32,000 nucleotides of DNA from Neglectibacter caecimuris (GTDB lineage Bacteria; Bacillota; Clostridia; Oscillospirales; Acutalibacteraceae). The position numbers and the translations under genes were made by a program. Shown in pieces: positions 227 to 17,281 of this stretch (its first letter is position 1; each line of letters opens with the position of its first letter). Under the pieces are notes generated by a model, which saw only the letters and a list, made by a program, of their open reading frames with translations, made no database searches and was not told the DNA's origin. The stretch is from positions 64,833 through 96,832 of the forward strand of contig NZ_JAWXXK010000008.1 of assembly GCF_034335015.1 (NCBI RefSeq), in the 5' to 3' direction.

Positions 227-1627
227 ATGGCGACCACACGGCTCATGCCGCTGCACGTTGGAAAAGGCCGGGATGTTTCCACGGCCATAGCAGACATCAT
301 TGACTATGTGGAGAATCCGCAGAAAACTGATTTTGGGAAATTCATTTATGGTTATGAGTGCGACACCCGGACCGCCGATGCGGAATTTCTTTTATCCAAG
401 CGGCAGTATGCGAACTTGACCGGACGTGACCGGGGCGCGGATGATGTGATTGCCTACCATCTCCGGCAGGCGTTCAAGCCCGGTGAGGTCACGCCGGAAG
501 AAGCGAACCAGATCGGGCGGGAACTGGCATTGAAGCTGACGAAGGGAAACCATGCTTTTGTTGTCTGCACCCATGTGGATAAACACCATGTCCATAACCA
601 CATTATCATAAACTCTACAACGCTGGACTGTCAGAAAAAATTCCGCAACTTCTGGGGTTCCACCTGGGCAATCCGGCGCATGAATGACAAGCTGTGCCTG
701 GAGCATGGGCTTTCCATTGTAGAGAATCCGAAACCCAGCCGCGACCATTACGGCACATGGATGGGAAGTCAGAAACAGCCTTCCCACCAGGAACAGCTAC
801 GCTGGGCTATTGACGCTGCTCTGGAAGAAAAGCCGAAAGACTTTGAAGAACTTTTGAAGAAGCTGGAGGCGGCTGGGATTGAAGTCAACCAAGAGCGGAA
901 GTACCTCCGTTTTCGCCTGTCACCGGAGGATCGATATACCCGGTGTGATACGCTAAAGGGCGACTATACTGAGCAGGCCATCAAAGAACGGATCGCCGGC
1001 ACCCGGATGGTGAAGCTGCGCCGTACCTCTCCCCCAAAGCCGGTTTCCAAAGTTGGGCTGCTGGTGGACATTGAGGCGGCGGTCCGCTCCGGCAAGGGTC
1101 CAGGGTATGAACGCTGGGCGAAGGTGTTCAACTTAAAACAGCTCTCCCAGGCGGTGATCTGGCTCAAAGAGCATGGCGATATGAGCTATGAGGATTTGCA
1201 GAAAAGATCAGACGCCGCTACCGACAGCTTCAATGCGTTGTCGGCACAGATCAAGGAACTGGAATCGCAGATGACCGCCAACGGGGAACTGCAGAAACAG
1301 ATCGTAAATTATGCCAAGACGCGGGCGGTCTATGTGGAGTACCGGAAAGCCGGGTACAGCAAAAAGTTCCGCGCGGCGCATGAGGCAGAAATCCTTCTGC
1401 ACCAGGCGGCGAAGAAACACTTTGACGAAGTTGGGATCACAAAGCTGCCCTCAGTCAAATCTCTGCGGGAGGAATACACCGGACTTCTGGAACAGAAACG
1501 GAAAGCCTATTCTTCCTATAAACAGGCCAGAGCAGATATGAGGGAGCTGTATAATGTCCGGGCGAATGTGGATTACTTGTTGAATGTATCTACCATTGAG
1601 CAGAATCGAGATAAGACACGACAATAA
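227..1627 (+). CDS. Relaxase/mobilization nuclease (MobA/VirD2-type, pfam03432-like)
   Basis: 466-aa ORF. SD AAGGGGG lies at 212-218. The N-terminal domain carries the histidine triad HVDKHHVHNHIIIN typical of HUH relaxases. Confidence 0.9.
   Translation: MATTRLMPLHVGKGRDVSTAIADIIDYVENPQKTDFGKFIYGYECDTRTADAEFLLSKRQYANLTGRDRGADDVIAYHLRQAFKPGEVTPEEANQIGRELALKLTKGNHAFVVCTHVDKHHVHNHIIINSTTLDCQKKFRNFWGSTWAIRRMNDKLCLEHGLSIVENPKPSRDHYGTWMGSQKQPSHQEQLRWAIDAALEEKPKDFEELLKKLEAAGIEVNQERKYLRFRLSPEDRYTRCDTLKGDYTEQAIKERIAGTRMVKLRRTSPPKPVSKVGLLVDIEAAVRSGKGPGYERWAKVFNLKQLSQAVIWLKEHGDMSYEDLQKRSDAATDSFNALSAQIKELESQMTANGELQKQIVNYAKTRAVYVEYRKAGYSKKFRAAHEAEILLHQAAKKHFDEVGITKLPSVKSLREEYTGLLEQKRKAYSSYKQARADMRELYNVRANVDYLLNVSTIEQNRDKTRQ
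837..1548 (+). repeat. Direct repeat copy A (relaxase 3-prime part), collinear with 6967-7678
   Basis: The offset of 6130 bp is constant along the repeat, and nested ORF-track entries shift by exactly 6130. I counted 14 aa differences in about 237 aligned codons by eye, with no indels. Confidence 0.9.
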
Positions 1628-1735
1628 TAGTATTCCAAATTCATTTGCGTATTTTAAGAAAAGTAGAAAATCTTTATGGAATCTTCAAAATTGCCCGGTA
1701 TGCTATCCGTAAAATCAAAGAAAGGACTTGATTAT

Positions 1736-2437
1736 ATGGATATGATTTTGAAAACGATTGACCTCTGCAAATCTTTCAGCGGGCAGATGGCCGTAAATAA
1801 TATATCGCTGAACATTGAAAAAAATTCCGTCTATGGACTATTGGGACCGAACGGAGCTGGAAAGTCTACAACGCTCAAAATGATTACAGGCATTTTAAAA
1901 CCGAACTCTGGAAGTATAGAGTTTGACGGCCACCTGTGGAAGCGGAATGATCTGGAGCATATCGGCGCGTTGATCGAGATGCCCCCGCTTTACGAAAATC
2001 TGACTGCATACGAAAATCTCAAAGTCAGAACTGCATTGCTCGGCCTGGACGATGCACGAATTAACGAGGTATTGCAAATTGTCCAGCTCACAAATACCGG
2101 CAAGAAACGGGTCGGGCAGTTTTCTCTTGGCATGAAGCAGCGGCTTGGAATTGCGATTGCATTACTGAATCATCCGAAGCTGCTCATTCTTGACGAGCCT
2201 ACAAACGGTCTTGACCCAGTGGGAATTGAAGAACTCAGGGAGCTGATCAGTTCCTTCCCCGCAAAAGGCATTACCGTTATTTTGTCCAGTCACATTCTTT
2301 CGGAAGTGCAGCAGATAGCCGACCATATTGGCATTATTGCGGGCGGTATTTTAGGATATGAAGGGAAACTGAATGCGAATGAAAATCTGGAACAGCTTTT
2401 TATGGACGTTGTAAAGAGTAATCACAGGGAGGGTTAA
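1736..2437 (+). CDS. Lantibiotic-protection type ABC transporter ATP-binding subunit (LanF/MutF/EpiF-like)
   Basis: Walker A GPNGAGKST, signature FSLGMKQRL and Walker B LLILDEPTNGLD. Followed by two LanE/LanG-like permeases. The start at 1736 (MDMILKT) is preferred over the ORF-track start 1676. Confidence 0.85.
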   Translation: MDMILKTIDLCKSFSGQMAVNNISLNIEKNSVYGLLGPNGAGKSTTLKMITGILKPNSGSIEFDGHLWKRNDLEHIGALIEMPPLYENLTAYENLKVRTALLGLDDARINEVLQIVQLTNTGKKRVGQFSLGMKQRLGIAIALLNHPKLLILDEPTNGLDPVGIEELRELISSFPAKGITVILSSHILSEVQQIADHIGIIAGGILGYEGKLNANENLEQLFMDVVKSNHREG

Positions 2438-2440
2438 GGT

Positions 2441-3160
2441 ATGAACTACTTAAAATCAGAACATTTAAAATTCAAACGGTCAATAGCAAACAAACTGATT
2501 TTCATCATTCCCTTTCTCACAGCTATCTTTGCATGGCTTATCGGCGGTTTTTATGGTTTCCAGTATATGACTCTTTACTGGTGGTATGCTTTCCTGCTTC
2601 CGGGGGCAATCGCAATTTTATGTTCGCTGTCACATCGGAAAGAAGAAAACGCAGGTAAATACTATTCCATATATTCTATGCCTGTGAATCTTTCAGAATT
2701 TGAACTGGCAAAGGGGATTATTCTGATTGAAAAGTTACTTATCGCAGGAATATTTTTAGCGGTACTTATCTCTGTCAGCAGTGTTATTTCCCCAGCAACG
2801 GCAGTATATTCCGTTCCACAAAGCATAGCGGGCAGTATAGCAATTATCCTTGCATCTGTATGGCAGATTCCGTTGTGTTTATACCTTGCTCGCAAAGCAG
2901 GATTGTTTGTACCGATCATAGTAAATACTATACTTGGTATATTTATCCCTATCCTATTGGGAAATACGGCGGTCTGGTGGTTAGTACCTTATTGCTATGC
3001 GGCAAAATTGGCAGAGCCTCTTATGGGAATTGAACTCCGGGGAACCTTTGCGGGAAATACTGGATTTTCTATAACTATTCTGATTTCCCTCGTGTTGTCA
3101 ATATTCCTGTTTTTTGTTTTGTCTTTCGTGGACGCAAAGGATTTTTCAAAAAGGAGGTGA
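2441..3160 (+). CDS. Lantibiotic immunity ABC transporter permease (MutE/EpiE-like)
   Basis: 239-aa polytopic membrane protein with the N-terminus MNYLKSEHLKFKRS typical of LanE-type permeases. It starts 4 nt after the ATPase stop. Confidence 0.75.
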   Translation: MNYLKSEHLKFKRSIANKLIFIIPFLTAIFAWLIGGFYGFQYMTLYWWYAFLLPGAIAILCSLSHRKEENAGKYYSIYSMPVNLSEFELAKGIILIEKLLIAGIFLAVLISVSSVISPATAVYSVPQSIAGSIAIILASVWQIPLCLYLARKAGLFVPIIVNTILGIFIPILLGNTAVWWLVPYCYAAKLAEPLMGIELRGTFAGNTGFSITILISLVLSIFLFFVLSFVDAKDFSKRR

Positions 3161-3164
3161 CGAA

Positions 3165-3896
3165 ATGGGATTTCTTGGTGCAGTTCATTCCGAACTGGTC
3201 AAAACAAAGCATACGCCATTGGGAATTATTCATTTATGTATACCTGTTATGGGAGCGTTGCTGTTTGTTGTTTACTATTTTCTGTATGGCAGCACAGCAG
3301 ACGGTAAAAAACTAAAAATGATATTAGAACTCACAGCAACGGTTTTTCCTTTGTTGATCAGCGTTATTGTTGGCCTGAATATTACATTAGAAGAAAAGGC
3401 TTCCCATTTCCAGCCATTGCTCGCCGTACCAAACCGGCGCAAGATGATACTTGCAAAATTAACTTATCTTTATGGCGCGGGGATCACCTCGTTATCCTGT
3501 CTGTTCCTGCTATTCGTATTTGGAATACAATTTTTGGGAATAGCTGATACAGTGCAGCTTGGCACACTAACCAGGGCAGCCGCGGGAATCGCATTCTGTA
3601 ATTTGATTATCTATGTCCTGCACCTGTTTCTCAGCCTTAAATTTGGCTTGGGTATCTCACTGTTTTGGGGCGTGTTTGAAAGTATGCAGTGTATTTTGTA
3701 TAGCAATATTGAGCTGAATGGCATAGCGCGGTATATCCCCTTCGCATGGTCTATGAACTGGGTGCGCGATATTTTGAATCATCAGATTTTTGCTCATGGG
3801 ACAGAATGGGTATGGATTGCTGTACTGACAATAGGCAGCTTACTGGTAACCTTATTATGGTTTTCTCATTGGGAAGGACGGAAAAATTATGAATAA
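3165..3896 (+). CDS. Lantibiotic immunity ABC transporter permease (MutG/EpiG-like)
   Basis: Polytopic membrane protein. SD AAGGAGG at 3151-3157 precedes ATG 3165 (MGFLGAVHSELVK). It is the second permease of the LanFEG-type set. Confidence 0.7.
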   Translation: MGFLGAVHSELVKTKHTPLGIIHLCIPVMGALLFVVYYFLYGSTADGKKLKMILELTATVFPLLISVIVGLNITLEEKASHFQPLLAVPNRRKMILAKLTYLYGAGITSLSCLFLLFVFGIQFLGIADTVQLGTLTRAAAGIAFCNLIIYVLHLFLSLKFGLGISLFWGVFESMQCILYSNIELNGIARYIPFAWSMNWVRDILNHQIFAHGTEWVWIAVLTIGSLLVTLLWFSHWEGRKNYE

Positions 3897-4704
3897 ATGT
3901 GGAAAAATGATGACGGCATTACTGGTCGCTTTTGTTGTTTGCTTTTCTCTTGCAGGCTGTTCTTTACAGGACAAAATCAAGGAATATTCCAGTAACAAGG
4001 AGCAATGCTATCTGGATGCGGAGAATGTGACGCAATTTTCCTATAAGGGAAATGACTATATCATTTTAGAGGACACCGTATTTAACGGCGGGCTTGGGGA
4101 ATGGGTTGGATATATCCGGCAGCTTACCGCCATAGACGAAGCGGGAAAAGTGTTGCTTCAAGAAAATGTGGAATCTGCCACCTTTCACACGTTGGCAGAT
4201 TTAGCGGAAAAAGCCCCGGAAGCCGCTTATATTATCCCTTTCTTGAATGTGTATGCAGCTCCCAATGCCGACACCTATCTGATTGTAGATGTAAATGGAG
4301 AATACCACAAAGCTATTACACATGAAAAACTGAAAGACACGGATATTGTCTTTGACTTTAAAGAAACGAAACAATCTATAAACGGCAGCTTTGAAGTCAA
4401 CCCGGCAAATGCTACGCAGCTCCTTTGTGATGGGACGGTCTATCAGGTAACGTCTGACGTGGTATCAAATGATGACTTAGGCAGATATATTGATATTCTC
4501 GCAGAAAGCGTTACATTCGATACCGAAACAAAAATCCCTTTTTCAAAGGAGGATTTGAACAAGATTGACTGGAACGGGGAGAATGCCGGGCAGGGGCGGG
4601 AGCAATGGTTTTACACAGATGTTTATGAGATTTATGGAACCGATACAACCGAAGCAGTTGCAGTCAAAGTAAATAACAGCTATCATATCGCAAAGCGGCA
4701 ATGA
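3889..4704 (+). CDS. Secreted lipoprotein of unknown function (candidate LanI-like immunity lipoprotein)
   Basis: Signal peptide with lipobox: MMTALLVAFVVCFSLAG-C. It overlaps the upstream permease stop by 8 nt, suggesting translational coupling. I recognised no domain. Confidence 0.7.
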   Translation: MNKCGKMMTALLVAFVVCFSLAGCSLQDKIKEYSSNKEQCYLDAENVTQFSYKGNDYIILEDTVFNGGLGEWVGYIRQLTAIDEAGKVLLQENVESATFHTLADLAEKAPEAAYIIPFLNVYAAPNADTYLIVDVNGEYHKAITHEKLKDTDIVFDFKETKQSINGSFEVNPANATQLLCDGTVYQVTSDVVSNDDLGRYIDILAESVTFDTETKIPFSKEDLNKIDWNGENAGQGREQWFYTDVYEIYGTDTTEAVAVKVNNSYHIAKRQ

Positions 4705-4728
4705 TGGTTTTTCTGCCCTTAAAGATTA

Positions 4729-4737
4729 TGCTATACT
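4729..4737 (+). promoter_or_regulatory. Extended -10 promoter element (TGcTATACT) upstream of the response regulator gene
   Basis: TG at 4729-4730 and TATACT at 4732-4737. The -35 is weak. The element lies 29 nt before the SD of the regulator gene. Confidence 0.3.
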
Positions 4738-4765
4738 GAAAAGAACAACGAAAGGAGGCGACAAT

Positions 4766-5425
4766 ATGGCAGCAATCCTTATGGTTGATGATGAACAGTC
4801 TATTTTAGAACTTGTCAAAAACGGGCTGCAAAAAGACGGACATCTCGTTACCATCTATACGTCTGCTGCACAGGTGCCACTTGATAAACTGAATAGGTAC
4901 GACTTGATTATACTGGATATTATGATGCCGGATATAGACGGCTTTTCCTATTGTGATAAAATCCGTTCCCTTGTGGATTGTCCGATTCTCTTTCTAACCG
5001 CAAAGACAATGGAAAATGATATTACATTTGGGCTGGGGCTGGGGGCAGATGACTATCTGACAAAACCTTTCCGCATTGCAGAACTCAGGGCACGGGTAAA
5101 CGCTCACTTACGCCGGGAGCACAGAGAACGGCATACGGCTCTTGCTTTTGACAGGATAAAAATAGATTTATCTGCAAAAGAATTACGGGTAGATAATACG
5201 CCTGTTCCCCTGACCAAAAGCGAATACCTGATTTGTGAATACCTTGCCCGGAATAAAGGACAGGTATTTTCAAAGGAACAGATTTACGAAGCGGTTTTTA
5301 GCTTAGAGGGCGACAGTGATAATTCCACCATTTCCACTCATATCAAAAATATTCGGGCGAAATTAAGTAAGTGGGATATTCAGCCGATTGTGACAGTCTG
5401 GGGGATTGGGTATAAATGGGAATGA
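4766..5425 (+). CDS. OmpR-family response regulator
   Basis: Receiver motifs (MVDDE, DLIILDIMMPDIDG, LTAK) plus a C-terminal wHTH ending VWGIGYKW. Confidence 0.9.
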   Translation: MAAILMVDDEQSILELVKNGLQKDGHLVTIYTSAAQVPLDKLNRYDLIILDIMMPDIDGFSYCDKIRSLVDCPILFLTAKTMENDITFGLGLGADDYLTKPFRIAELRARVNAHLRREHRERHTALAFDRIKIDLSAKELRVDNTPVPLTKSEYLICEYLARNKGQVFSKEQIYEAVFSLEGDSDNSTISTHIKNIRAKLSKWDIQPIVTVWGIGYKWE

Positions 5426-6780
5426 AGAAAACAACATCATTGAAAGCGTCTTTCTGGAAATTTTTATGTATGCTGCTTGTGGGACTGTTGGGGGCGGCAG
5501 CCGTCCCCTTCGGCCTTATTTTAGCCGGAACAAATATGGGCTTTATTACTTATGCCAATTATATGGAAAGCAGCGCAAAAAACCTCGCCCCGGTTATCGC
5601 TGCCACGCCGGATCTGGCAGACGTTCAGCTCCCTATGGGGTGCAGGTATCTGTTGCTGGATAAGAATTATCGGGTAGTAAAAACGTCCTTAGAGGGTGAA
5701 GATTTGGACTCGGCTATGGAATATGCCATATCGGGGAAGGCAAATCAAAATCCGGACAAGCAGTACTTATTTGTTACCCGTGAAAACGAATATGTGGTGC
5801 TTCAATACTATGTCGGTTCGCAGTTTACCAACGAATGGCTTTATGAGCATTTCCCATCGCCGGAAATCCTGCTGTATATTCTCATTGCCATAAACTGTAT
5901 AATGGTGTGCATAATCTTAACGGCAAAATTCGCAAAAAATCTACAGGTGCAGCTTTCCCCGCTTTTTGAAGCAACAGAACAGGTTGCACGGCAAAATCTT
6001 GATTTTGAAGTGGGACACTCCAAAATCAAAGAATTTGAGGATGTACTTTGTTCTTTTTCCGATATGAAAAACAATCTGAAATCATCTTTAGAAAAACAAT
6101 GGGACGCAGAGCGATTACAAAGGGAGCAAATCGCGGCGCTTGCTCATGACTTAAAAACACCGTTGACTGTCGTTCAAGGAAATATCGACCTTATAAGTGA
6201 AACGGAACTTGACGACGAGCAGCGGTTATATGCTGGGTATATTACAGAAAGCTCCGAACAGATGGGTGTTTATATTAGGACGCTAATAGATATATCCCGG
6301 ACTGCCTCCGGGTATCAGCTTAATTTAGAAAAATTTGATATGGCTGATTATATGGAGCTGATAGAAGCCCGGGCAAGCTCTATGTGTCTTACGAAAGGAA
6401 TTTCCTTACACATGGAAACCGGCATAGATTTAGGTGTTTTTAAAGCGGATAAAATGCTGCTGGAACGGGCGATTATGAATGTGATTGCCAATGCGCTAGA
6501 CTACTCTCCTACAAAAGGAACCATCTATATAGTAACGAAAAAGGCAGACAACTTTCTGCAAATCTCCATAACGGACGAGGGCAGCGGTTTTACCCCGGAA
6601 GCCCTGCATCATGCACACGAGCAATTTTTCATGAGTGACCATAGCCGGACTTCTAACCTGCATTTTGGTATGGGACTTTATATTACAAGCTGCATTACCA
6701 GGCAGCATAACGGGCAGCTCATATTGGAAAATTCTGATATAACAAACGGCGCACAGGTCATTATAAAAATCCCATATTAG
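5416..6780 (+). CDS. Sensor histidine kinase (two TM segments with an extracytoplasmic loop)
   Basis: H-box LAHDLKTPLT, N-box NVIANALDYS and G-boxes DEGSGF and GMGLYI. It overlaps the regulator stop. An alternative start is at 5422. Confidence 0.85.
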   Translation: MGMKKTTSLKASFWKFLCMLLVGLLGAAAVPFGLILAGTNMGFITYANYMESSAKNLAPVIAATPDLADVQLPMGCRYLLLDKNYRVVKTSLEGEDLDSAMEYAISGKANQNPDKQYLFVTRENEYVVLQYYVGSQFTNEWLYEHFPSPEILLYILIAINCIMVCIILTAKFAKNLQVQLSPLFEATEQVARQNLDFEVGHSKIKEFEDVLCSFSDMKNNLKSSLEKQWDAERLQREQIAALAHDLKTPLTVVQGNIDLISETELDDEQRLYAGYITESSEQMGVYIRTLIDISRTASGYQLNLEKFDMADYMELIEARASSMCLTKGISLHMETGIDLGVFKADKMLLERAIMNVIANALDYSPTKGTIYIVTKKADNFLQISITDEGSGFTPEALHHAHEQFFMSDHSRTSNLHFGMGLYITSCITRQHNGQLILENSDITNGAQVIIKIPY

Positions 6781-6919: not shown

Positions 6920-6965
6920 AGCGTTCCAACGGAACGCGCAGCCATCACCGCAGGTGATGATCTCA
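6920..6965 (+). repeat. 46-bp twin-hairpin element, copy 1
   Basis: GCGTTCC-AAC-GGAACGC (6921-6937), spacer GCAGC, CATCACC-GCA-GGTGATG (6943-6959), then ATCTCA. It matches 9737-9782 with one mismatch. The copy ends exactly where relaxase homology resumes at 6967. Confidence 0.85.
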
Positions 6966-6966
6966 A

Positions 6967-7748
6967 AAGACTTTGAAGAACTTTTGAAGAAGCTGGAGGC
7001 GGCTGGGATTGAAGTCAACCAAGAGCGGAAGTACCTCCGTTTTCGCCTGTCGCCGGAGGATCGATATAGCCGGTGTGACACGCTAAAGGGCGACTATACC
7101 GAGCAGGCCATCAAAGAACGGATCGCCGGCACCCGGACGGTGAAGCCGCGTCGTACCTCTCCCCAAAAGCCGGTTTCCAAAGTCGGCCTGCTGGTGGATA
7201 TTGAGTCGGCGATCCGTTCCGGCAAAGGGCCGGGGTATGAACGCTGGGCGAAGGTGTTCAACTTAAAGCAGCTTTCCCAGGCGGTGATCTGGCTCAAAGA
7301 GCATGGCGATATGAGCTATGAGGATTTGCAGAAAAAATCAGATGCCGCTACCGCCAGCTTCAATGCGTTGTCGGTACAGATCAAGGAACTGGAATCACAG
7401 ATGACCGCCAACGGAGAGCTGCAGAAACAGATCGTAAATTATGCCAAGACGCGGGCGGTCTATGTGGAGTACCGGAAAGCCGGGTACAGCAAAAAGTTCC
7501 GCGCGGCGCATGAGACGGAAATCCTTCTGCACCAGGCGGCGAAGAAACACTTTGACGAGCTGGGGATCACAAAGCTGCCCTCCATCAAATCTCTGCGGGA
7601 GGAATACGCCGGACTTCTGGAACAGAAACGAAAAGCCTATTCTTCTTATAAGCAGGCCAGAGCCGATATGAAAGAGCTTTAGTTAAAGCCAATGGACTAT
7701 CTGTTGGGCGGGTCTGTGATGGAACGGGAGCGGGATAATGCACGCTAG
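6967..7748 (+). pseudogene. 5-prime-truncated relaxase gene fragment (C-terminal ~260 codons) with an in-frame premature stop
   Basis: Collinear with 837-1627 of the intact relaxase. It lacks the whole HUH nuclease domain. TAG at 7680-7682 replaces the Tyr codon of copy A, and residual homology (DYLL...) continues in frame to TAG at 7746-7748. The ORF-track start at 6825 is read-through from unrelated sequence. Confidence 0.8.
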
Positions 7749-7885: not shown

Positions 7886-8809
7886 ATGAACATCCTAAAA
7901 GTACAGGCCGTTCGTTCTGACGGTATCTACAGAAAAATCATGGAAGCGCCAGCTTCTAAAAAAAATGATATTTATCGCTATGAAATGATGAAGCCTTTTG
8001 AAAAGAAATGGGCCTGCTACAATGTGCCAATGAAGGCTGCACAACCGAATGGCTATGATGTTATTATGGCAAGTGGTATGTTGGGCTTTCTTCTGCCAGA
8101 AAAAATTGATGGAACATGGGCCCAAAGTATTATACTGTTGGACGACAACCAATTTTGGGATAACTGTCAAAAGTCTATCGAGCGGTCATTAAAGTGTTTT
8201 TCCGATGCTGGAATAGAATTTCCTGTGAAAGAATATCTATACACTGTTTTGCTGGCTGACCCCCAAAATCCTTATTCGATAATGAATGACAATTACTGTG
8301 GAGATGGAGGTATTCCCGGCTACATTTTTACATGGCTTGTTCCATCTGAACACACTAAGAGCAGACTTCCCGTAGCGTTGGCACATGAAACAAATCATAA
8401 TGTCCGTTTCCAGTTTATAAAATGGCACAATGACATTACTCTTGCTGAAATGATGATAAGTGAGGGCCTTGCTGAAAACTTTGCTACTTACCTATATGGT
8501 GAGGAAAATGTAGGACCGTGGGTAAGCAAGACAGATATGGAAACTTTGAACGGATATATTAAACCCATCATCCGGGAAGGGCTGGATGTACAAGGCTTAG
8601 ATAACCTGACAGCATATCTATATGGTGATGAAATGGCTCAAATGCAAAATTATTTTCCTGTTGGTTTACCCTATTGTGCTGGATATGCTTGTGGCTATCA
8701 TATGATAAAATATTATCTGAAAAAAACAGGAAAATCTATCATTGAAGCTACCATGACACCTGCTGATGAAATATTAAAAGAAGTGGAGGGATTTTGGAAT
8801 GAATCCTAA
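7886..8809 (+). CDS. Putative Zn-dependent protease (DUF2268-like)
   Basis: 307-aa ORF with an HExxH motif (ALAHETNHNV) and a downstream EGLAENFA segment. The family assignment is from memory of DUF2268 features. Confidence 0.6.
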   Translation: MNILKVQAVRSDGIYRKIMEAPASKKNDIYRYEMMKPFEKKWACYNVPMKAAQPNGYDVIMASGMLGFLLPEKIDGTWAQSIILLDDNQFWDNCQKSIERSLKCFSDAGIEFPVKEYLYTVLLADPQNPYSIMNDNYCGDGGIPGYIFTWLVPSEHTKSRLPVALAHETNHNVRFQFIKWHNDITLAEMMISEGLAENFATYLYGEENVGPWVSKTDMETLNGYIKPIIREGLDVQGLDNLTAYLYGDEMAQMQNYFPVGLPYCAGYACGYHMIKYYLKKTGKSIIEATMTPADEILKEVEGFWNES

Positions 8810-9563
8810 AAAAATGATGATTCATGAGGTTGCAAAGCTGACCGGTATTACGATACGTACTTTGCATTACTATGATGAAATCGGTCTGTTGGAACCTACC
8901 AAAGCAGATAAGACAAAATATCGTTTATATTCCGAAAATGATTTAGAAAAGTTACAACAAATTCTATTTTACCGTGAAGTGGGGTTTTCTCTAAAAGAGA
9001 TCAAGGCATTATTATCAGCACCCGTATATAATAAACGAGAAGCGCTAGAAAGACATTTAGAACTTCTTAATCTTAGAAAAAAGAAAATAGAGGGACTTAT
9101 TTGCTTAGTCAACGATACTTTGGCCGGAAAGAGTGATTACTCGTTTACAGCATTTTCAAATGCAGAAATTTCTGCTCTACAAGAAAAATATAGGAATGAA
9201 GTTATCGAACGTTGGGGCAGCACCCATGAGTATCAAGAGTTTTCTTCTTTTTTTTCAGCCAGAGCCGAAAAAGAGAGAAATCAGAAGTGGAATGATTTTT
9301 TAATATATTCCCAAAATGTCTTTGAACGACTGGCGGAATATAAGGCAGAAACACCTACTTTACCCGCCGTCCAATCTATTGTTGCAGAGTGGCAAGAGTA
9401 TATTTCTGAAAACTTCTATCCCTGTTCGGATGATATGCTGATGTATCTGGGCGAACTCTATCAAACAGACGAACGGTTTGCCGAGTACATCAACAGATTT
9501 GCTACATGGAATGTTGCAGAGTTTTTTGGTGAAGCAATTAAAGTCTATTGCTGTAATCGCTAA
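8799..9563 (+). CDS. MerR-family transcriptional regulator with a TipAS-like C-terminal domain
   Basis: N-terminal MerR HTH (IHEVAKLTGITIRTLHYYDEIGLL ... YRLYSENDLEKLQQILFYREVGFSLKEIK) and a long C-terminal helical domain. It overlaps the upstream gene by 11 nt. Confidence 0.8.
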   Translation: MNPKKMMIHEVAKLTGITIRTLHYYDEIGLLEPTKADKTKYRLYSENDLEKLQQILFYREVGFSLKEIKALLSAPVYNKREALERHLELLNLRKKKIEGLICLVNDTLAGKSDYSFTAFSNAEISALQEKYRNEVIERWGSTHEYQEFSSFFSARAEKERNQKWNDFLIYSQNVFERLAEYKAETPTLPAVQSIVAEWQEYISENFYPCSDDMLMYLGELYQTDERFAEYINRFATWNVAEFFGEAIKVYCCNR

Positions 9564-9736: not shown

Positions 9737-9782
9737 AGCGTTCCAACGAAACGCGCAGCCATCACCGCAGGTGATGATCTCA
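9737..9782 (+). repeat. 46-bp twin-hairpin element, copy 2
   Basis: Same sequence and orientation as 6920-6965. One G-to-A change at 9749 weakens the first stem. Confidence 0.85.
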
Positions 9783-9811
9783 GGGGTTTGGGGATATGTC
9801 ACCAACAAGCA

Positions 9812-9871
9812 TTTTGGCAGGAATACCGGAAACGGATTCCTGCCAAAATACGCAATCTTACGGAAGATTGC
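9812..9871 (+). other. Two strong hairpins in a non-coding region, neither followed by a T-run
   Basis: In the first hairpin (9812-9848), TTTTGGCAGGAAT (9812-9824) pairs with ATTCCTGCCAAAA (9836-9848) and CCG (9826-9828) pairs with CGG (9833-9835). That gives 16 bp with a 1-nt bulge and a GAAA tetraloop. The second is GCAATCTT-ACGG-AAGATTGC at 9852-9871. Confidence 0.6.
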
Positions 9872-9924
9872 ATTGCTTGCCATTTTGTGGTGACTAGGAA
9901 AAAGTTCTCATACCATGAACAGCA

Positions 9925-9953
9925 TTGATAGACTAAACGAAAGACGGTACAAT
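9925..9953 (+). promoter_or_regulatory. Sigma-70-type promoter TTGATA-N17-TACAAT for the downstream MerR gene
   Basis: -35 at 9925-9930 and -10 at 9948-9953 with a 17-bp spacer, 75 nt upstream of ATG 10028. Confidence 0.5.
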
Positions 9954-10027
9954 AAGGATGCAGCAAGTAACATATAAAGCTGTAATGAGATAAAAGCACA
10001 AATATAGTTAGAGTAGGTGGTGAAACG

Positions 10028-10840
10028 ATGTTTCGGATAGGAGAATTTTCAAAGCTGACGCAGGTATCTATTCGTATGCTCCGCTATTATGACGAGGCAG
10101 GCATTTTAACGCCAGCGGAGGTTGATAAATGGACGGGACACCGGCTGTATTCGGTGAAGCAAATACCACGCCTAAATAAAATCCTGTATTTGCGGGATAG
10201 TGGGCTGAATGTTTCAGAAATCGCGCTTGCCCTGACGCTGGACGAGCAATCACTTCTTGCGCAGCTTGACAAAAAGCACATAGAGATAGAAGATGCAATA
10301 CAGGCCGAACGAGAAAAACTGCGGAAGATTGAACTTGCAAAAAGTGAAATACAGGGTGGCAAAGGAGAACTGCATTATAACATCTCCGTTAAGTCGATCC
10401 CTGCGTATCAGGTGCTATCCTTGCGGAAAGTTGTACCAACCTACTATTCCGAGGGCGACTTATGGAAAGAACTTTCTGCTTTTACAGATGCGCAAAAAAT
10501 AGAAATAACGAGCAATACATTTTCCATTTATCACGATACAGAATTTCGGGAGACAGATGTTGATATTGAGTTATGTGCTCCGGTAAAGAAAATGGGAACG
10601 GCAAAAGAACCATTTTGTTTCCGCATGACAGAACCAGTCCCACATATGGCTTGTACAATGGTCTATGGAGATTTTGCAAATATAAAAGGAGCCTACCTTG
10701 CCTTTGCCGAATGGCTGCAGAAAAACAGCAAATACAAAATGTCTAACCCGATGCGTCAGATCGTACATAGAGGCCCGTGGAATGAGAATGACCCTGAAAA
10801 ATATCTGATCGAACTTCAAATACCGCTGGAACACATATGA
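10028..10840 (+). CDS. MerR-family regulator with a GyrI-like effector-binding domain (BmrR-like)
   Basis: N-terminal MerR HTH (FRIGEFSKLTQVSIRMLRYYDEAGIL ... HRLYSVKQIPRLNKILYLRDSGLNVSEI), a coiled-coil linker and a ~150-aa C-terminal GyrI-like domain. Confidence 0.85.
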   Translation: MFRIGEFSKLTQVSIRMLRYYDEAGILTPAEVDKWTGHRLYSVKQIPRLNKILYLRDSGLNVSEIALALTLDEQSLLAQLDKKHIEIEDAIQAEREKLRKIELAKSEIQGGKGELHYNISVKSIPAYQVLSLRKVVPTYYSEGDLWKELSAFTDAQKIEITSNTFSIYHDTEFRETDVDIELCAPVKKMGTAKEPFCFRMTEPVPHMACTMVYGDFANIKGAYLAFAEWLQKNSKYKMSNPMRQIVHRGPWNENDPEKYLIELQIPLEHI

Positions 10841-10854
10841 TTGTGCAGGCTTTG

Positions 10855-10890
10855 AAATGTCCTGCTAAAAATACAGGGCATTTTTTATTT
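10855..10890 (+). terminator. Rho-independent terminator after the MerR gene
   Basis: AAATGTCCTG (10855-10864) pairs with CAGGGCATTT (10874-10883), including one G-U pair. The loop is 9 nt and a T-run follows (TTTTTTATTTTT). Confidence 0.6.
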
Positions 10891-10897
10891 TTCCCTG

Positions 10898-10928
10898 TTG
10901 CATCTCACATGATGTGAGGTATTATACT
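10898..10928 (+). promoter_or_regulatory. MerR-type promoter: TTGCAT-N19-TATACT with a dyad in the spacer
   Basis: -35 at 10898-10903 and -10 at 10923-10928, with a 19-bp spacer containing CTCACA-tga-TGTGAG. It lies 30 nt upstream of the TsaA-like gene and directly downstream of the BmrR-like gene. Confidence 0.6.
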
Positions 10929-10958
10929 GGATTTACCAACAAAGCAAGGAGGAAAAAT

Positions 10959-11432
10959 ATGACCTATCAATTAAAAGCCATTGGCAAAGTAAAAAATGAT
11001 GAAACCGGCACATTTATTCAGTTAGAGCCGGAGTACATTCCCGGACTGCAAGCCTTAGAGGGCTTCAGCCATATCAATGTTCTTTGGTGGTTCAGTGATT
11101 GTGACAACGATGCAGACCGGAATGAATTACAGACAGAACAGCCCTATAGAGGCTCACCCGAAGTCATGGGTGTATTTGCGACACGATCTCCTGCACGTCC
11201 GAACCCTATCGCATTAACGGCGTCCGAAATTATCGATATTGATTTCATCAACGGCATGATTCGCATTACATTTATTGACGCAAACGACAATACGCCCGTA
11301 CTCGACATCAAGCCCTACACACCGAGTTTTGACAGGGTTGAAACGCCCGGTGTTCCCGCATGGTGCAGCGGATGGCCGAAAAGCACAGAAGCGTCCGGCT
11401 GTTTCGATTGGGGACAGGTGTTCAACTTTTAA
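10959..11432 (+). CDS. TsaA/TrmO (YaeB, UPF0066)-family SAM-dependent methyltransferase-like protein
   Basis: SD AGGAGG at 10948-10953 and ATG at 10959. Family-like segments include IGKVKND, HINVLWWF, RSPARPNPIAL and TPVLDIKPY. Confidence 0.7.
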   Translation: MTYQLKAIGKVKNDETGTFIQLEPEYIPGLQALEGFSHINVLWWFSDCDNDADRNELQTEQPYRGSPEVMGVFATRSPARPNPIALTASEIIDIDFINGMIRITFIDANDNTPVLDIKPYTPSFDRVETPGVPAWCSGWPKSTEASGCFDWGQVFNF

Positions 11433-11443
11433 GGGGGCGGCTT

Positions 11444-12049
11444 ATGAAATTACAGGATTTTGTTCAGGATAAACCTGTTCTTGAAACGGAGCAGCTTATC
11501 CTGCGCCCCTTGCGAAAAGAAGATGTTGCGGATTTGAAAGAATGGCTGGGCGACAGCTCCATTTATCAGTATTGGGGCAAACGCCCCGGAAAAAGCGACT
11601 TAAATCCGGAATTACTTTTCCAAAAACCAGAAAAACCTACGAAAAGTTTTCATTGGGGTGTTGTCTACAAACAGGATCATAAAGTTATTGGTGATATGTG
11701 GGTATATCTCATTGAGAATGACCGCATGGCAAAAGTGGCATTTCGTCTTTCACCTGCCTATCAAGGGAACCGGTTTATGACAGAAGCGCTGGCGAGAGTA
11801 GCTATCTTCTGCTTTGAAGAAACGGAACTACAACGTTTATGGGCTGATGTTCACACGCAAAATATGGCATCGTATAAAACATTGGAAAAAGCAGGCTTCA
11901 AGCGTGAGGGACTAATCCGTGAGGGTAAAATGGTAAACACATACTGCGATTACTATTTGTACGGTATGATTAAAGCTGATTATATTGAAATCACCGATAA
12001 GGGGCTACCCCCTTACGAGCACTGTGAACGCTTTTTCCGAAAAAACTAA
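11444..12049 (+). CDS. GNAT-family N-acetyltransferase (RimJ/RimL-like)
   Basis: SD AAGGGGG at 11431-11437 and ATG at 11444. It has the typical LILRPLRKEDV N-terminus and a QGNRFMTEAL...LEKAGFKREG acetyl-CoA-binding region. Confidence 0.8.
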   Translation: MKLQDFVQDKPVLETEQLILRPLRKEDVADLKEWLGDSSIYQYWGKRPGKSDLNPELLFQKPEKPTKSFHWGVVYKQDHKVIGDMWVYLIENDRMAKVAFRLSPAYQGNRFMTEALARVAIFCFEETELQRLWADVHTQNMASYKTLEKAGFKREGLIREGKMVNTYCDYYLYGMIKADYIEITDKGLPPYEHCERFFRKN

Positions 12050-12066
12050 ATCCATATAGCCCCAAT

Positions 12067-12107
12067 CTGCTGAACGACGGCAAAAGAAAAAAGCTGTCGT
12101 TCAGCAG
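12067..12107. terminator. Long hairpin downstream of the GNAT gene (terminator-like)
   Basis: CTGCTGAACGACGGC (12067-12081) pairs with GCTGTCGTTCAGCAG (12093-12107) with one mismatch. The loop is A-rich and no clean 3-prime T-run follows on the plus strand. Confidence 0.4.
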
Positions 12108-12227
12108 CCCTTATTCCATGTCTCTATTTTACAAAGTGCATTTTCTTAATCAAAAAGCGCATTGCGTGAAAAGCCTGGCAAAAAATAAAATGATATAATT
12201 TGAACATCAAATATAGGAGGTGCCGCA

Positions 12228-13157
12228 ATGCACGCATATGAAGCGATCGAACAATCCTTGACTTTTATCGAGGAACACCTGACAAAAGAAATTTCAACGG
12301 AAGAACTGGCAAATACTGTCGGCCTGTCCCCCTTTTATTTTCAGCGCTTATTCAGGCGGCTGGTAAATAAACCGGTTCAGGAATATGTGAAGCTCCGCCG
12401 TTTGGCAAAGGTTATTGAAAATCTGAAAAGTACCGAACAGAGGATTCTTGACGCTGCCTTGGACTATGGTTTTTCAAGCCATGCGAATTTTACACGAGCT
12501 TTCAAGGAAACGTATGGGATTACGCCTGAAAACTACAGAAGGGATTTACCAATGCTCAATACATTCGACAAGCCGGAAGTTTCTATGAATTACGTTTTGG
12601 TAGACGAAGGGGTTCCGCTAGTGGTAGGAAATATTGTCTTGGAGATTCAGAGAAAGACATTGGAAAAACCGGAAATTTATTTCGGACTGGAAACGGAAGT
12701 TCGCATTTCTGAACAAATACCAGTTGGAGAAAGCACAGGTGTAGATGTGCCAGGGCAGCTTTGGAAGCGCTACCACATGGAGAAGGCTTCAATCGTAGCC
12801 AATCTAAATACTAATGTAGAAATGGGAATGTCCCATGCGAAAGGTACTGCACAACCCCTTTTCACTTATTTTGCAGGCGGTCTTGTTCAAAATATTCCGG
12901 ACCGGCTGCAGGATGGTTTTGTTAAGAGAGAACTCTCGGCAGGAGAATACATCGTTTGCAGAGTCGAAGCAGAAAATTTTGAGGATTTGGTGACGGTAGC
13001 TTTGGATCAGGCCAGCAAGTACCTTTTTGGTACATGGTTGCAGCACCACAGCCTGACCACAGAGCCCTTCTCTGCAGAGAAGTATTACAGAGATGCGGAG
13101 GACATGGCCTACATGGAAATTTGGGTTAAACCCCTGCCGCTGAAAAATAAAAGCTAA
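12228..13157 (+). CDS. AraC-family regulator with a C-terminal GyrI-like effector-binding domain
   Basis: N-terminal AraC HTH pair (ELANTVGLSPFYFQRLFRR ... FSSHANFTRAFKETYGITPENYRR) followed by a ~190-aa GyrI-like domain. Confidence 0.8.
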   Translation: MHAYEAIEQSLTFIEEHLTKEISTEELANTVGLSPFYFQRLFRRLVNKPVQEYVKLRRLAKVIENLKSTEQRILDAALDYGFSSHANFTRAFKETYGITPENYRRDLPMLNTFDKPEVSMNYVLVDEGVPLVVGNIVLEIQRKTLEKPEIYFGLETEVRISEQIPVGESTGVDVPGQLWKRYHMEKASIVANLNTNVEMGMSHAKGTAQPLFTYFAGGLVQNIPDRLQDGFVKRELSAGEYIVCRVEAENFEDLVTVALDQASKYLFGTWLQHHSLTTEPFSAEKYYRDAEDMAYMEIWVKPLPLKNKS

Positions 13158-13171
13158 GGAGGAAAATAAGA

Positions 13172-13600
13172 ATGGATTGGAATTTGCTCTATTCAAATGT
13201 AACGCCGCCTACGTGGGAGCAGGTCACAGAATATATCGGCAGTCCGTTATGGGCGGAGTTTAATGAGCGTATCCAGTCCGCCTACCAGATCAAGCCCTGC
13301 ATGGAACACAGCCGCTGTTCCATGCAGGCTGGCTGGAATATTAAGTATAAAAAAGGTGGAAAGTCTCTTTGTACGCTCTATCCGATGCAAGGCTATTTTA
13401 TCGCTCTCGTGGTTGTAGGAAGTCGTGAACTTACGGAGGCAGAGCTTCTTATGCCGCTATGTTCCGACTATGTGCAGACGGTATTCAAAAACACGAAAAC
13501 CGGAAATGGACAGAAGTGGTTGATGCTGGATGTAAAGGATAGAGAAATTATGGATGATGTATTTAGCCTCATCAATCTCAGAAAGCGCATACAGTCATAA
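13172..13600 (+). CDS. DUF3788-family protein
   Basis: 142-aa ORF with the characteristic CSMQAGWNIKYKKGGKSLCTLYP segment. SD AAGGAGG is upstream. Confidence 0.6.
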   Translation: MDWNLLYSNVTPPTWEQVTEYIGSPLWAEFNERIQSAYQIKPCMEHSRCSMQAGWNIKYKKGGKSLCTLYPMQGYFIALVVVGSRELTEAELLMPLCSDYVQTVFKNTKTGNGQKWLMLDVKDREIMDDVFSLINLRKRIQS

Positions 13601-13730
13601 CAGGAAATGGAAACATAATATTCGACAAGCCCTGATAAAGATAGCAACATTATGCAAGAAAACGAGATGCGCATAAACTATAATGATATTATCGGGACAA
13701 CTTTGTGGAGGTAGCTTATGGAGGTGACTT

Positions 13731-14546
13731 ATGGATAACGCTGGCAGTAGAATTGTTTTTGACGAAAAACTTAATATAGAGGTATTAACACTGACAGGAA
13801 TGATAGAAAACTTATCTCCGCATTTTCATGATTACTATGAATTGGGCTATATAGAAAGCGGAAGCCGACGGGTAATATGTCAAGGCAAGGAGTATACAAT
13901 AGGGAAAAATGATCTGCTCCTTTTTAACCCGAATGACAATCATACCTGCTTAGAATTGGAAAAAGAACTGTTGGATTTTAGATGTTTTCACATCACTACC
14001 GAACGCATGGAAGAATTGGCATTGGAATGTATAGGATATGCTATATGCCCGTATTTTGATCCGCAGATTGTTCACCAGAGCGACCTTATTCCGCAAATCA
14101 AAGAGTTGATTGATTTAATTGAAAATGGATCGTATTGTGATCTGCAAAAGGAAGAGCTGCTTTATATGATTATCGGTGATTTGGTTGCAGATTATGCTCA
14201 ACCATTGAAATGCGGACAAAAGGAAATTTCGGATGGTGTAGAACGTGCTTGCGAGTATATTGAAAGGCACTATGCCACAAACATTTCTTTATGCGATTTG
14301 AGTTCCTTTACCGGTTTTAGCAAGTACCACTTTATACGTATGTTTACGAGAGAAAAGGGTATATCCCCCTATCGTTTTATTGAATGTATTAAAATGACAG
14401 AAGCCAAAAAAATGCTGAAGGACGGAGAAGATTTATCAAACATAACCTATCAGCTCGGCTTTAGCAGCCAAAGCCATTTCAATAATTTTTTCAAAAAATA
14501 TGCCAGAGTGACTCCGAAACAATATAGCAAACTTTATAACGATTAA
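13731..14546 (+). CDS. AraC-family regulator with an N-terminal cupin-like sensing domain
   Basis: C-terminal HTH pair (LCDLSSFTGFSKYHFIRMFTREKGISPYRF ... LGFSSQSHFNNFFKKYARVTPKQY). SD GGAGGTGA precedes ATG 13731. Confidence 0.8.
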   Translation: MDNAGSRIVFDEKLNIEVLTLTGMIENLSPHFHDYYELGYIESGSRRVICQGKEYTIGKNDLLLFNPNDNHTCLELEKELLDFRCFHITTERMEELALECIGYAICPYFDPQIVHQSDLIPQIKELIDLIENGSYCDLQKEELLYMIIGDLVADYAQPLKCGQKEISDGVERACEYIERHYATNISLCDLSSFTGFSKYHFIRMFTREKGISPYRFIECIKMTEAKKMLKDGEDLSNITYQLGFSSQSHFNNFFKKYARVTPKQYSKLYND

Positions 14547-14639
14547 AATGAGCTTTTTGCATAGAACGCTGGAATACAACAGGAATATTAGTTGATGGTA
14601 AAAGAATAAATACCCACACTACGGAAAGGGGGCGGCGAC

Positions 14640-15138
14640 ATGGGAAATTAGCTGTATTTGATATATCTGAACCGGGCGGTAGAATTGCGGAAAAGCTGCT
14701 TGTTCTGTTAAACGCCCGTCAGCGTCGGGAATTAGTAAACTATCTTCTTGATTCCGAAAAACAACAGAATAATCTGGCTGACAGCCCATGTGCCATTCCC
14801 GAAACTTATAAGGTGCAGACAGTCATTGATGAACCGTTCACAGAGATTCAAATGAACAATTTATATTTCTGCCAGGAACAACGGCTTGTATGTATTGGCG
14901 AGCAGGTAATTGAATTAACCGCTAAGGAATTTGACATCCTTGCTTTGTTGATCACACACCCGAAGCGGGTATTTACTTATGAGCTGATTATGGAATTGGT
15001 CTGGAATGAGGATTATTCCTATTACTCCCGCAAGGCAGTCAATAATCATATAAGTAATCTGCGGAAGAAATTGAAAATTACGCCGGATTCCCCGGACTAC
15101 ATCAAAAGCGTTGTTGGCGTTGGATATAAATTTGAAGT
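14640..15138 (+). repeat. Direct repeat copy 1 (wHTH regulator gene), collinear with 27557-28055
   Basis: Constant offset of 12917 bp with no indels. Weaker similarity extends about 35 bp further upstream. I counted 10 aa differences in 109 aligned residues by eye. Confidence 0.9.
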
Positions 15139-15145
15139 GCCGTAA
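14813..15145 (+). CDS. OmpR/PhoB-type winged-helix DNA-binding protein without a receiver domain (copy 1)
   Basis: Trans_reg_C-like C-terminus (LTAKEFDILALL...NHISNLRKKL...IKSVVGVGYKF). The GTG start at 14813 comes from the ORF track. The frame is open upstream to 14552 with no canonical start, so the true N-terminus is uncertain (see findings). Confidence 0.6.
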   Translation: MQTVIDEPFTEIQMNNLYFCQEQRLVCIGEQVIELTAKEFDILALLITHPKRVFTYELIMELVWNEDYSYYSRKAVNNHISNLRKKLKITPDSPDYIKSVVGVGYKFEVP

Positions 15146-15251
15146 TTTAAACTATGAAATCAGACGGCAGTTGAATGTGTTTAAGGTGTGGCTGCCGTAG
15201 CTATCTGCTTCGCTTTATGTAGGTAATCGTCAAGATTAGAAATAAGCTCCC

Positions 15252-15280
15252 TTGACGATTATCTGTAATTATGCTACCAT
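15252..15280 (+). promoter_or_regulatory. Candidate vanRS promoter TTGACG-N17-TACCAT with an extended TG
   Basis: -35 at 15252-15257, TG at 15272-15273 and -10 at 15275-15280. The -35 lies inside the right arm of a 10-bp inverted repeat (15225-15234 / 15251-15260). Confidence 0.35.
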
Positions 15281-15350
15281 CGGCTGATAATGTGACAGCA
15301 TTTTTGCACATAATAAAGATATATTGATCGAAGCAGTAAGGAGTAATGCA

Positions 15351-17184: not shown

Positions 17185-17233
17185 GAAATTCCGCTAAAAA
17201 TCATATATTATCCGCAAAGGAAAGCGAAAACAT

Positions 17234-17281
17234 AAATCGCTCCATTCTGATATGCTATATATCGGGTGGAGCGATTTTTTT
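17234..17281 (+). terminator. Hairpin plus T-run between vanS and vanY
   Basis: AAATCGCTCCA (17234-17244) pairs with TGGAGCGATTT (17267-17277). The loop is 22 nt and the T-run extends to 17281. The loop contains TGcTATAT (17253-17260). Confidence 0.5.

Follow-up and report, generated by a model that had tools for sequence, protein, structure and literature searches.

The closest described relative of the locus considered here is Tn1549, whose origin of transfer (oriT) has been placed in a 28-bp segment (22239-22266) with the nic site RYGCTTG|C (oriTDB data in PMC7755788). A "B-type" organisation of the Tn1549 family has also been described (PMC12084326); in the available portion of that paper, putative oriTs of MOBP7 integrative mobilizable elements are placed upstream of mobC, and neither an oriT downstream of the relaxase gene nor a twin-hairpin module is described. 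The stretch of DNA analysed here, which will be called the window, comprises 32,000 nucleotides of Neglectibacter caecimuris (contig NZ_JAWXXK010000008.1, positions 64,833 to 96,832); as indicated by Pfam and NCBIfam scans, repeat families and a tRNA scan, it is the right half of an integrative conjugative element (ICE). The window contains two copies of a 46-nt sequence made of two adjacent small hairpins, the twin hairpin. This 46-mer is probably the relaxase-proximal accessory module of the oriT in a B-type ICE of the Tn1549 family (MOBP7), doubled in the window by element fusion.

The sequence AGCGTTCCAACGGAACGCGCAGCCATCACCGCAGGTGATGATCTCA is found at 6920-6965 and at 9737-9782, and the sole mismatch between the copies (G6932 versus A9749) falls in the 3' arm of the first hairpin, HP1; none of 100 dinucleotide-preserving shuffles of the window gave any match to the 46-mer. 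Each copy consists of two 7-bp stems with 3-nt loops, with GCAGC between them and ATCTCA after the second hairpin, HP2, and the flanks of both copies are unrelated, on the left as well as on the right. Immediately after the ATCTCA of copy 1 a repeat of the relaxase gene begins: the segment from 836 to ~1560 recurs at 6966 to ~7690 with ~94% identity, and its start is exactly at 6966. An earlier note on this DNA, based on the letters only, had reported the two copies with their single mismatch, their unrelated flanks and the end of copy 1 at the relaxase fragment, and it was correct in every detail. It had also regarded the hairpins as unlike terminators, a judgement that is borne out by ATCTCAGGGG following HP2, by the absence of a T-run after the hairpins on the + strand in both copies, and by a terminator scan, which called no intrinsic terminator on the + strand at either copy.

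Three further readings of the element were dropped: an attC site, since the element is formed by two hairpins and not by a single imperfect hairpin with a GTTRRRY core; a terminator, since the U-run is absent; and a small open reading frame (ORF), since no start codon or conserved reading frame runs across the element. The sole gathering-level match of Rfam 15 in the window was the tRNA, and a permissive search of 9650-9950 gave a chance snoRNA match (E=2.7). BLAST of the 46-mer region against the PLSDB plasmids gave no match, and from a neighbouring query the sole match was to ~58 nt of Tn1549 that lie after the cargo.

A genome scan, covering one genome per species and based on the exact 24-nt core of the motif, identified 61 loci (designated below by L-numbers) in Lachnospiraceae, Oscillospiraceae, Erysipelotrichaceae and Peptostreptococcaceae. 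All 61 continue rightward as copy 2 does, with ATCTCA|GGGGTTTGGGGAYATGTCACCAACAAGC and with GGGGTTTGGGG next to the motif. The motif always runs on into one ~100-nt sequence, composed of GGGGTTTGGGGA...CCAACAAGC, a long hairpin, an 8-bp inverted repeat and ATTGCTTG|C, and it makes up the first 46 nt, on the left, of a conserved ~150-nt block (~9732-9880 in the window). In the window, GGGGTTTGGGG and ATTGCTTGC are present only once, at 9783 and 9872, respectively, and copy 2 alone has the oriT core. In about 30 of the 61 loci a full 473-aa relaxase gene stops 26 nt before the motif; in canonical loci the hairpin starts 23-30 nt past the relaxase stop codon, and the gene order is MobC/NikA, DUF5699, DUF3849 and relaxase, all in a single orientation, which matches the B-type organisation as given in the available portion of PMC12084326. 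The earlier note had proposed such a search in other genomes, together with a record of what flanks the motif: the flanks turned out to be one constant oriT core, and cassette ends do not recur after ATCTCA.

Two samples were collected independently of the motif, one through relaxase homologues (9 distinct loci) and the other through the oriT-core sequence alone (15 loci). The twin hairpin was found at the same place in 8 of the 9 relaxase-selected loci and in 15 of the 15 core-selected ones; in the ninth relaxase-selected locus (L069/L070) it follows an intervening cargo. There, ~6 kb of cargo lie between the relaxase and its oriT block (~15455-15600), and the truncated regulator gene and a terminator come before the block, which shows that the block can be displaced and still be intact. 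The 22 motif positions lying outside the search constraint are 97-99% identical between loci whose flanks are ~90% identical.

About 20 loci have no relaxase beside the motif. Here an unrelated sequence of ~140 nt, which starts sharply at AATGGCAGTAGCCCATAAGG with different host DNA upstream each time, is followed by a canonical + strand terminator and then by the complete block; in these relaxase-less elements, as in L069, the terminator lies 25-45 nt before the hairpins (~30 nt in L069). They comprise L009, L022, L024, L026, L033, L039, L040, L060 and L062, with L036, L050, L051, L061, L006, L007 and L011 as variants. L009, the only such locus that is annotated, is a ~7-kb element with a WYL regulator, a UDG-like protein, an MFS transporter, a truncated regulator (Trans_reg_C), Cys_rich_VLP and RepA_N, and its recombinase is a large serine recombinase with DUF4368. 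Presumably, the relaxase-less elements keep the oriT for mobilisation in trans.

The identity of the block as an oriT emerges from its comparison with Tn1549. The left end of Tn1549 was mapped at position ~8577-8581 of the pMG2200 record by comparing plasmids with and without the transposon, and the published oriT coordinates, so placed, fall on GGGAGTGGCTACACTCCCTATGCTTGCT, which is the inverted repeat together with the core GCTTGC. On the strand opposite the mob genes, the mobC-orf30 intergenic region of Tn1549 reads TTCAGGGGTTTGGGGATTTCCCCAACAAGC, a long hairpin (AAAACGG...CCGTTTT), TCC, GGGAGTG-GCTA-CACTCCC, TAT and GCTTG|C; the block of the window is collinear with it and reads, on the + strand, TCAGGGGTTTGGGGATATGTCACCAACAAGC, the long hairpin HP3, AC, the inverted repeat HP4, ATT and GCTTG|C (9875-9880). 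The homology is extended, since TCAGGGGTTTGGGGA...CCAACAAGCA aligns as well, and it starts exactly at TCAGGGG. The features that characterize a Tn1549-family oriT are thus found, both the inverted repeat with the nic core within a few nt of it (9852-9880) and the adjacent PF03432 relaxase and MobC-type gene, the accessory genes being those seen in canonical loci. The twin hairpin, by contrast, is absent from Tn1549 and from its described oriT, and the 46-mer is an addition specific to family B.

As the block is homologous to and collinear with the oriT mapped in Tn1549, the nic of the window is predicted at 9879|9880 of the + strand, and the ATCTCA junction lies 97 nt to its left. The + strand segments spanning the predicted nic are HP4 plus ATTGCTTGCC and HP4 plus ATTGCTTGCCATTT, and those spanning the ATCTCA boundary are HP2 plus ATCTCAGGGG and HP2 plus ATCTCAGGGGTTTGGGG. 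The earlier note had linked the motif to the relaxase and its oriT, with a nic just after ATCTCA: the link stands, as the module abuts the oriT, but the nic is placed elsewhere by homology. The same note would have given up its proposal if the true oriT lay elsewhere with a different sequence, and, taken narrowly, this is what was found, even though motif and oriT are immediate neighbours. Two other assignments were discarded: a nic at CCCCTG on the minus strand, beside the junction, was ruled out by the Tn1549 coordinate check, and an alternative 28-mer, TTGCTTGTTGGGGAAATCCCCAAACCCC, lies ~70 nt off the published oriT coordinates.

Conservation around the predicted nic is complete, as AAGATTGCATTGCTTG|C is present in 73 of 73 blocks and conservation proceeds rightward through AAGATTGCATTGCTTGC. 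Past the predicted nic of these 73 blocks a weak C(C/G)AnTTT can be followed for ~8 nt, after which at least 25 unrelated right flanks are found. The main cargo slot is this recurrent boundary with many partners, which lies ~8 nt beyond the predicted nic. It is the place at which oriT recombination by the relaxase, or insertion targeted to the oriT, would act, and such events are discussed for other ICE families (PMC7563491). Less often, cargo occupies another slot, between the 3' end of the relaxase gene and the twin hairpin, and insertions in it replace the last ~20 relaxase codons. The sequence CAAGCA (9806-9811), located before the long hairpin, is complementary to the TGCTTG of the nic core (9874-9879), and the same is true in Tn1549 (L064 ~8760-8850); because of this complementarity, in the single-stranded DNA (ssDNA) fold HP3 and HP4 are enclosed in a three-way junction that pairs the nic core.

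Both twin-hairpin stems evolve in a compensatory fashion, and the structure is under selection. HP1 occurs as GCGTTCC/GGAACGC, GCGTTCT/AGAACGC, GCGCCC/GGGTGC, GCGTCC/GGACGC and GTGTTC/GAACGC, and HP2 as CATCACC/GGTGATG, CATTGCC/GGCAATG, CGTTACC/GGTAACG, CGTCACC/GGTGACG and CGTCACC/GGTGGCG. Pairs were counted on an alignment of 15 variants and 51 columns, in which the three shorter forms of HP1 are filled with N at the inner pair, and also by script; a whole-block MAFFT alignment is unsuited to pair counts, because the shorter HP1 variants and HP3 are misaligned in it. In the 15-variant alignment standard pairs occupy 99.5% of the cells and both partners have changed in 6 of the 14 pairs; covariation scores 0.321, compared with 0.191±0.016 in shuffles and <=0.11 in slid registers. 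The loops are variable, while the unpaired CAG, G(C/T)AGC and ATCT(C/T)A are nearly invariant. Where a pair is not of the Watson-Crick type, it is G·T on the + strand (five or six independent variants), with one exception, the C·A of window copy 2; the stems therefore matter as single-stranded + strand, which is the predicted transferred strand and the sense strand of the relaxase mRNA alike. HP3 also has many compensated variants, one version being flipped, and the block folds strongly as ssDNA, with z = -7.3 for the + strand and z = -8.4 for the minus strand.

The canonical layout, as observed, runs from the relaxase stop codon over ~23 nt to the twin hairpin and ATCTCA, then through GGGGTTTGGGGA...CCAACAAGC, the hairpin of 17 bp and the inverted repeat of 8 bp to ATTGCTTG|C, beyond which the cargo is variable. 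According to the model proposed here, the relaxase would bind the last inverted repeat and nick GCTTG|C on the + strand (9879|9880); on the transferred strand the twin hairpin would lie 5' of the nic at a distance of 97-142 nt and would be the last part to enter the recipient. The two stems may form in single-stranded + strand DNA or through extrusion from the duplex and, together with the invariant unpaired spacers (CAG, GCAGC, ATCTCA), they may provide a docking or structural site for an accessory factor of the relaxosome, the candidate partners being MobC/NikA, DUF5699 or DUF3849; as an alternative role, the same ssDNA structure might help to start complementary-strand synthesis. Since the hairpins are kept beyond the reach of the relaxase transcript, a cis-acting DNA role within the oriT is favoured over one at the mRNA 3' end.

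Several points weigh against this assignment. Most of the sample was fetched by the exact 24-mer, so that the apparent conservation is inflated, and the samples obtained through the relaxase and the core mitigate this bias without removing it. The nic position of B-type elements is a prediction from homology, and the R of RYGCTTG|C is a T in the window. Tn1549 has no twin hairpin and its 28-bp oriT fragment works, so the module is not essential to this type of oriT; a 130-bp Tn1549 oriT fragment, in work attributed to Tsvetkova in 2010, reportedly functions without the twin hairpin too. The binding partner named above is a guess, and the G·U wobbles would suit an RNA role equally well, the + strand being the sense strand of the relaxase mRNA. 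Finally, the junction of copy 1 falls precisely where the twin hairpin meets the core homologous to Tn1549, and a duplication in L056, described below, shares this boundary, a coincidence that breakage by pure chance leaves unexplained.

The wobbles lead to the first of the other explanations, in which the twin hairpin acts at the RNA level in the relaxase transcript, as a 3'-end stabiliser or as a terminator or roadblock devoid of a U-tract. In B-type elements, where the relaxase gene reads toward the oriT, such an element could insulate the oriT and the cargo from read-through; the short distance of the hairpin from the relaxase stop codon and the pairs compatible with G·U on the mRNA sense strand agree with it, as does the lack of such hairpins in A-type Tn1549, whose mobC diverges from the oriT. 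However, no U-run follows either hairpin and the + strand scan found no terminator, Rfam holds no match, the invariant unpaired spacers are not needed by simple terminators, and the relaxase-less elements and L069 keep the hairpins just 3' of a canonical terminator. An RNA-level element is therefore considered rather unlikely.

A second explanation sees the hairpins, alone or with the block, as an initiation signal on the transferred strand, similar to a single-strand origin (sso) or a primosome-loading site, which starts complementary-strand synthesis in the recipient. The selection of the structure on the predicted transferred strand, its position at the 3' end of that strand, beside the nic, the strong ssDNA fold of the block (z = -7.3) and its retention by relaxase-less mobilisable elements are all in line with this role; nevertheless, the minus strand folds too (z = -8.4), testable sequence similarity to the described sso types is absent, and Tn1549 works without the twin hairpin, so that a signal of this kind is distinctly unlikely.

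As regards the doubling of the module, loci were found in which each half of the window arrangement exists separately. In L005 the end of cargo 1 is joined to an intact oriT block, with the same right flank as in the window; L012, L025, L056 and L057 contain the second relaxase gene at full length, cargo 2, the twin hairpin and an intact block. Each of the two cargoes is thus found alone in other genomes, with a relaxase gene on one side and the motif on the other, and therefore the window combines two element types that exist apart. Elements A and B would each have consisted of relaxase, cargo, twin hairpin and oriT core; a single illegitimate event would have linked element A, with its relaxase, cargo 1 and twin hairpin, to codon 204 of the relaxase gene of element B, with loss of the oriT core of A and retention of that of B, leaving copy 1 as an inert remnant and copy 2 as the working module. 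The junction, ATCTCA|AAAGAC, displays neither microhomology nor likeness to the nic core, and neither microhomology nor a nic-like sequence was found when sought at the relaxase breakpoint. When 241 million metagenome records were scanned for motif copies with a next base that is not G, a single contig (L065) turned up; it has the same junction together with a nearby single-nucleotide polymorphism. The 6965/6966 break is a single lineage-specific illegitimate event and not a recurrent hotspot. An origin by homology-anchored insertion found no support, as the sliding identity of relaxase A to L025, L057 and canonical relaxases has no step at 836.

Two side observations concern comparable rearrangements. 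In L056 (3207-3297; Dorea sp. 5-2, KE159717.1) the 45-nt twin-hairpin unit is exactly duplicated in tandem, with TCAG at both sides; this is most simply explained by slippage between the TCAG microhomologies around a foldable segment. In L019 and L013, ~170-1200 nt 3' of the nic, a fragment of a more distantly related relaxase gene has ~68% nucleotide identity to window 561-1575 and is another fusion remnant, on the nic side; a second oriT block was sought after this fragment in L019 and none was found.

The earlier note had interpreted the break after ATCTCA as a recombination or nicking hotspot; in this model the relaxase, or some other HUH enzyme, would cleave a few nt 3' of HP2 (ATCTCA|), and maybe also 5' of HP1, under the guidance of the twin hairpin, so that cassettes would accrete at it. 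The window junction lies exactly after ATCTCA, the L056 duplication comprises an exact 45-nt unit with TC|AG at both sides, and the Tn1549 homology also starts exactly at TCAGGGG; however, all 61 genome loci continue with GGGGTTTGGGG and none has a foreign right flank, the one metagenome contig repeats the window junction, the sequence is unlike the family nic core GCTTG|C, the L056 duplication is accounted for by TCAG slippage, the left cargo junctions vary by several nt and no HUH transposase gene was found by Pfam in the window. This explanation is therefore very unlikely, and the new accretion mechanism that the note drew from it is not supported. Its claim that the motif marks cassette ends survives in part: the motif is the right end of a cargo slot, as in L005 and in L012, L025, L056 and L057, but the left end is imprecise and not a precise cut, since it varies from -12 to -1 and most flank classes share a TTTTC run before AGCG. 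An end of IS200/IS605 type is excluded and another end guided by an HUH hairpin does not fit either, as outside the lineage of the window the motif is never found off this oriT, the hairpins are dissimilar and an HUH or TnpA gene is absent; no Y1/HUH transposase was detected in the Pfam scans of the window.

A last possibility, to which only a very small chance is assigned, is that the twin hairpin is a second processing site of the relaxosome, at which the relaxase or an accessory nuclease would cut ssDNA at TC|AG around the folded 45-nt unit, producing both the orphan junction and the L056 duplication; if true, it would be a nic-independent way for ICEs to join foreign DNA, on the relaxase side of the oriT.

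The features of the window are collected in Table 1.

Table 1. Position of the twin-hairpin copies, the oriT and the other features of the 32,000-nt window
Feature	Position	Strand	Description and evidence
Intact relaxase gene	227..1627	+	466 aa, MobA/VirD2-type nuclease domain, MOBP7, Tn1549 family; Pfam PF03432 E=2e-34
Cargo 1, between relaxase and twin hairpin copy 1	1676..6780	+	Lantibiotic-immunity ABC transporter, SpaI-like protein, response regulator, histidine kinase; Pfam
Twin hairpin copy 1	6920..6965	+	HP1 6921-6937, spacer GCAGC, HP2 6943-6959, tail ATCTCA; orphan without oriT core and nic
Illegitimate junction, twin hairpin end / codon 204 of second relaxase gene	6965..6966	.	Alignment; microhomology absent
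Second relaxase gene, 3' fragment	6966..7682	+	~94% identical; putative remnant of element B; repeat family D1 and alignment
Cargo 2	7886..9563	+	DUF2268 putative Zn-protease, MerR/TipAS regulator; Pfam
Twin hairpin copy 2	9737..9782	+	Normal place at 5' edge of oriT; HP1 9738-9754 (C·A mismatch), HP2 9760-9776, tail 9777-9782
oriT core	9783..9880	+	Collinear with Tn1549 oriT region; GGGGTTTGGGG, imperfect inverted repeat 9788-9805, CAACAAGC, HP3, HP4, nic core
HP3, long hairpin of oriT core	9811-9849	+	
HP4, inverted repeat of oriT core	9852-9871	+	GCAATCTT-ACGG-AAGATTGC
Nic core ATTGCTTG|C	9872-9880	+	Predicted nic 9879|9880
Cargo region 3' of predicted nic	9881..29012	+	MerR, TrmO, GNAT, AraC, vanD operon, ABC transporters, regulators; Pfam, NCBIfam, repeat family D2
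Truncated response-regulator remnant, first	14813-15145		
vanD operon	15324-20990		
Truncated response-regulator remnant, second	27619-28062		
Sigma-70-like gene	28548-29012		
Small ORF in excisionase position	29675-29899		By position alone
Tyrosine integrase	29920-31305		
tRNA-Arg(CCT)	31500-31576	minus	

The relaxase of the window shares 82-93% amino acid identity with thousands of relaxases of gut Firmicutes, and its last ~20 codons diverge from the canonical 473-aa form. An ORF of 285 aa with a TTG start (6825-7682) crosses motif copy 1 in frame into the relaxase fragment and has no Pfam match; a C-terminal relaxase domain could in principle be expressed from it. The ~100 nt after cargo 2 (9575-9680) have 81% identity to the segment after vanX-B in Tn1549 (L001 5950-6060, pMG2200), where the counterpart is annotated as a small minus-strand hypothetical ORF; the segment holds a GGCGG...CCGCC hairpin and appears to be a common "end of cargo" sequence.

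In the cargo region 3' of the predicted nic, the vanD-type operon is complete, with vanR-D, vanS, vanY-D, vanH-D, the vanD ligase and vanX, and the ligase scores 729.9 bits against an NCBIfam VanD cut-off of 700. A backbone duplication (14622-15145 and 27539-28062, 89% identity), formed by a truncated response-regulator-like gene with Trans_reg_C only and by its upstream region, brackets the segment with the vanD operon and the transporters; in related elements the truncated regulator is a backbone gene by the sigma/xis/int or the serine-recombinase module. This duplication is consistent with a further remnant of element fusion and fits repeated fusions of related elements. The right end of the element, with the small ORF, the tyrosine integrase and tRNA-Arg, extends over 29675..31576.

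Altogether, a probable oriT with its nic has been located for the B-type elements of the Tn1549 family. Gut Firmicutes harbour these elements in great abundance, and the one in the window carries a vanD operon. The oriT lies downstream of the relaxase gene and has a structurally selected twin-hairpin module that is missing from the Tn1549 prototype; the handle running from the twin hairpin to ATTGCTTG|C may be used to find origins, to spot relaxase-less elements mobilisable in trans and to set the limits of the cargo slots that flank the oriT. At least two ICE cargo modules have been fused in the element of the window. The advance is modest: within a known family, an accessory module that had not been described and an oriT that is relocated refine known ICE biology and introduce no new mechanism.

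Compared with IS200/IS605 ends, the locus has in common the subterminal hairpins and a break a few nt away; however, the window lacks a TnpA gene, the two hairpins do not resemble each other, the motif was never seen outside this oriT and a target-site signature is absent. With chimeric and tandem ICEs, such as the Tn916 chimeras (PMC7563491), it shares a composite structure with backbone remnants, namely the 3' relaxase fragment and the duplicated truncated regulator, and a divergence of the family sequences that begins at the predicted nic; unlike in those elements, the 6965/6966 junction is off the nic, has neither homology nor microhomology and resembles an illegitimate deletion or fusion rather than oriT-specific recombination. 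The B-type Tn1549-family ICEs of gut Firmicutes are similar in the tyrosine integrase next to tRNA-Arg, in the common occurrence of composites and chimeras and in the existence of relaxase-less mobile genetic elements with oriT-like sequences, as far as these are covered in the available portion of PMC12084326. The oriT of Tn1549 itself has the same order of TCAGGGGTTTGGGGA, short inverted repeat, CCAACAAGC, long hairpin, 7-8-bp inverted repeat with a 4-nt loop, 3-nt spacer and GCTTG|C, the same complementarity of CAAGCA to TGCTTG, and a PF03432 relaxase and MobC as neighbours. The differences are that in Tn1549 the mobC start codon, transcribed away from the oriT, occupies the position of the twin hairpin, whereas in the family of the window the oriT is downstream of the relaxase gene on the same strand; that the long hairpin and the nic-proximal inverted repeat differ in sequence; and that two positions before GCTTG the window has a T in place of a purine.

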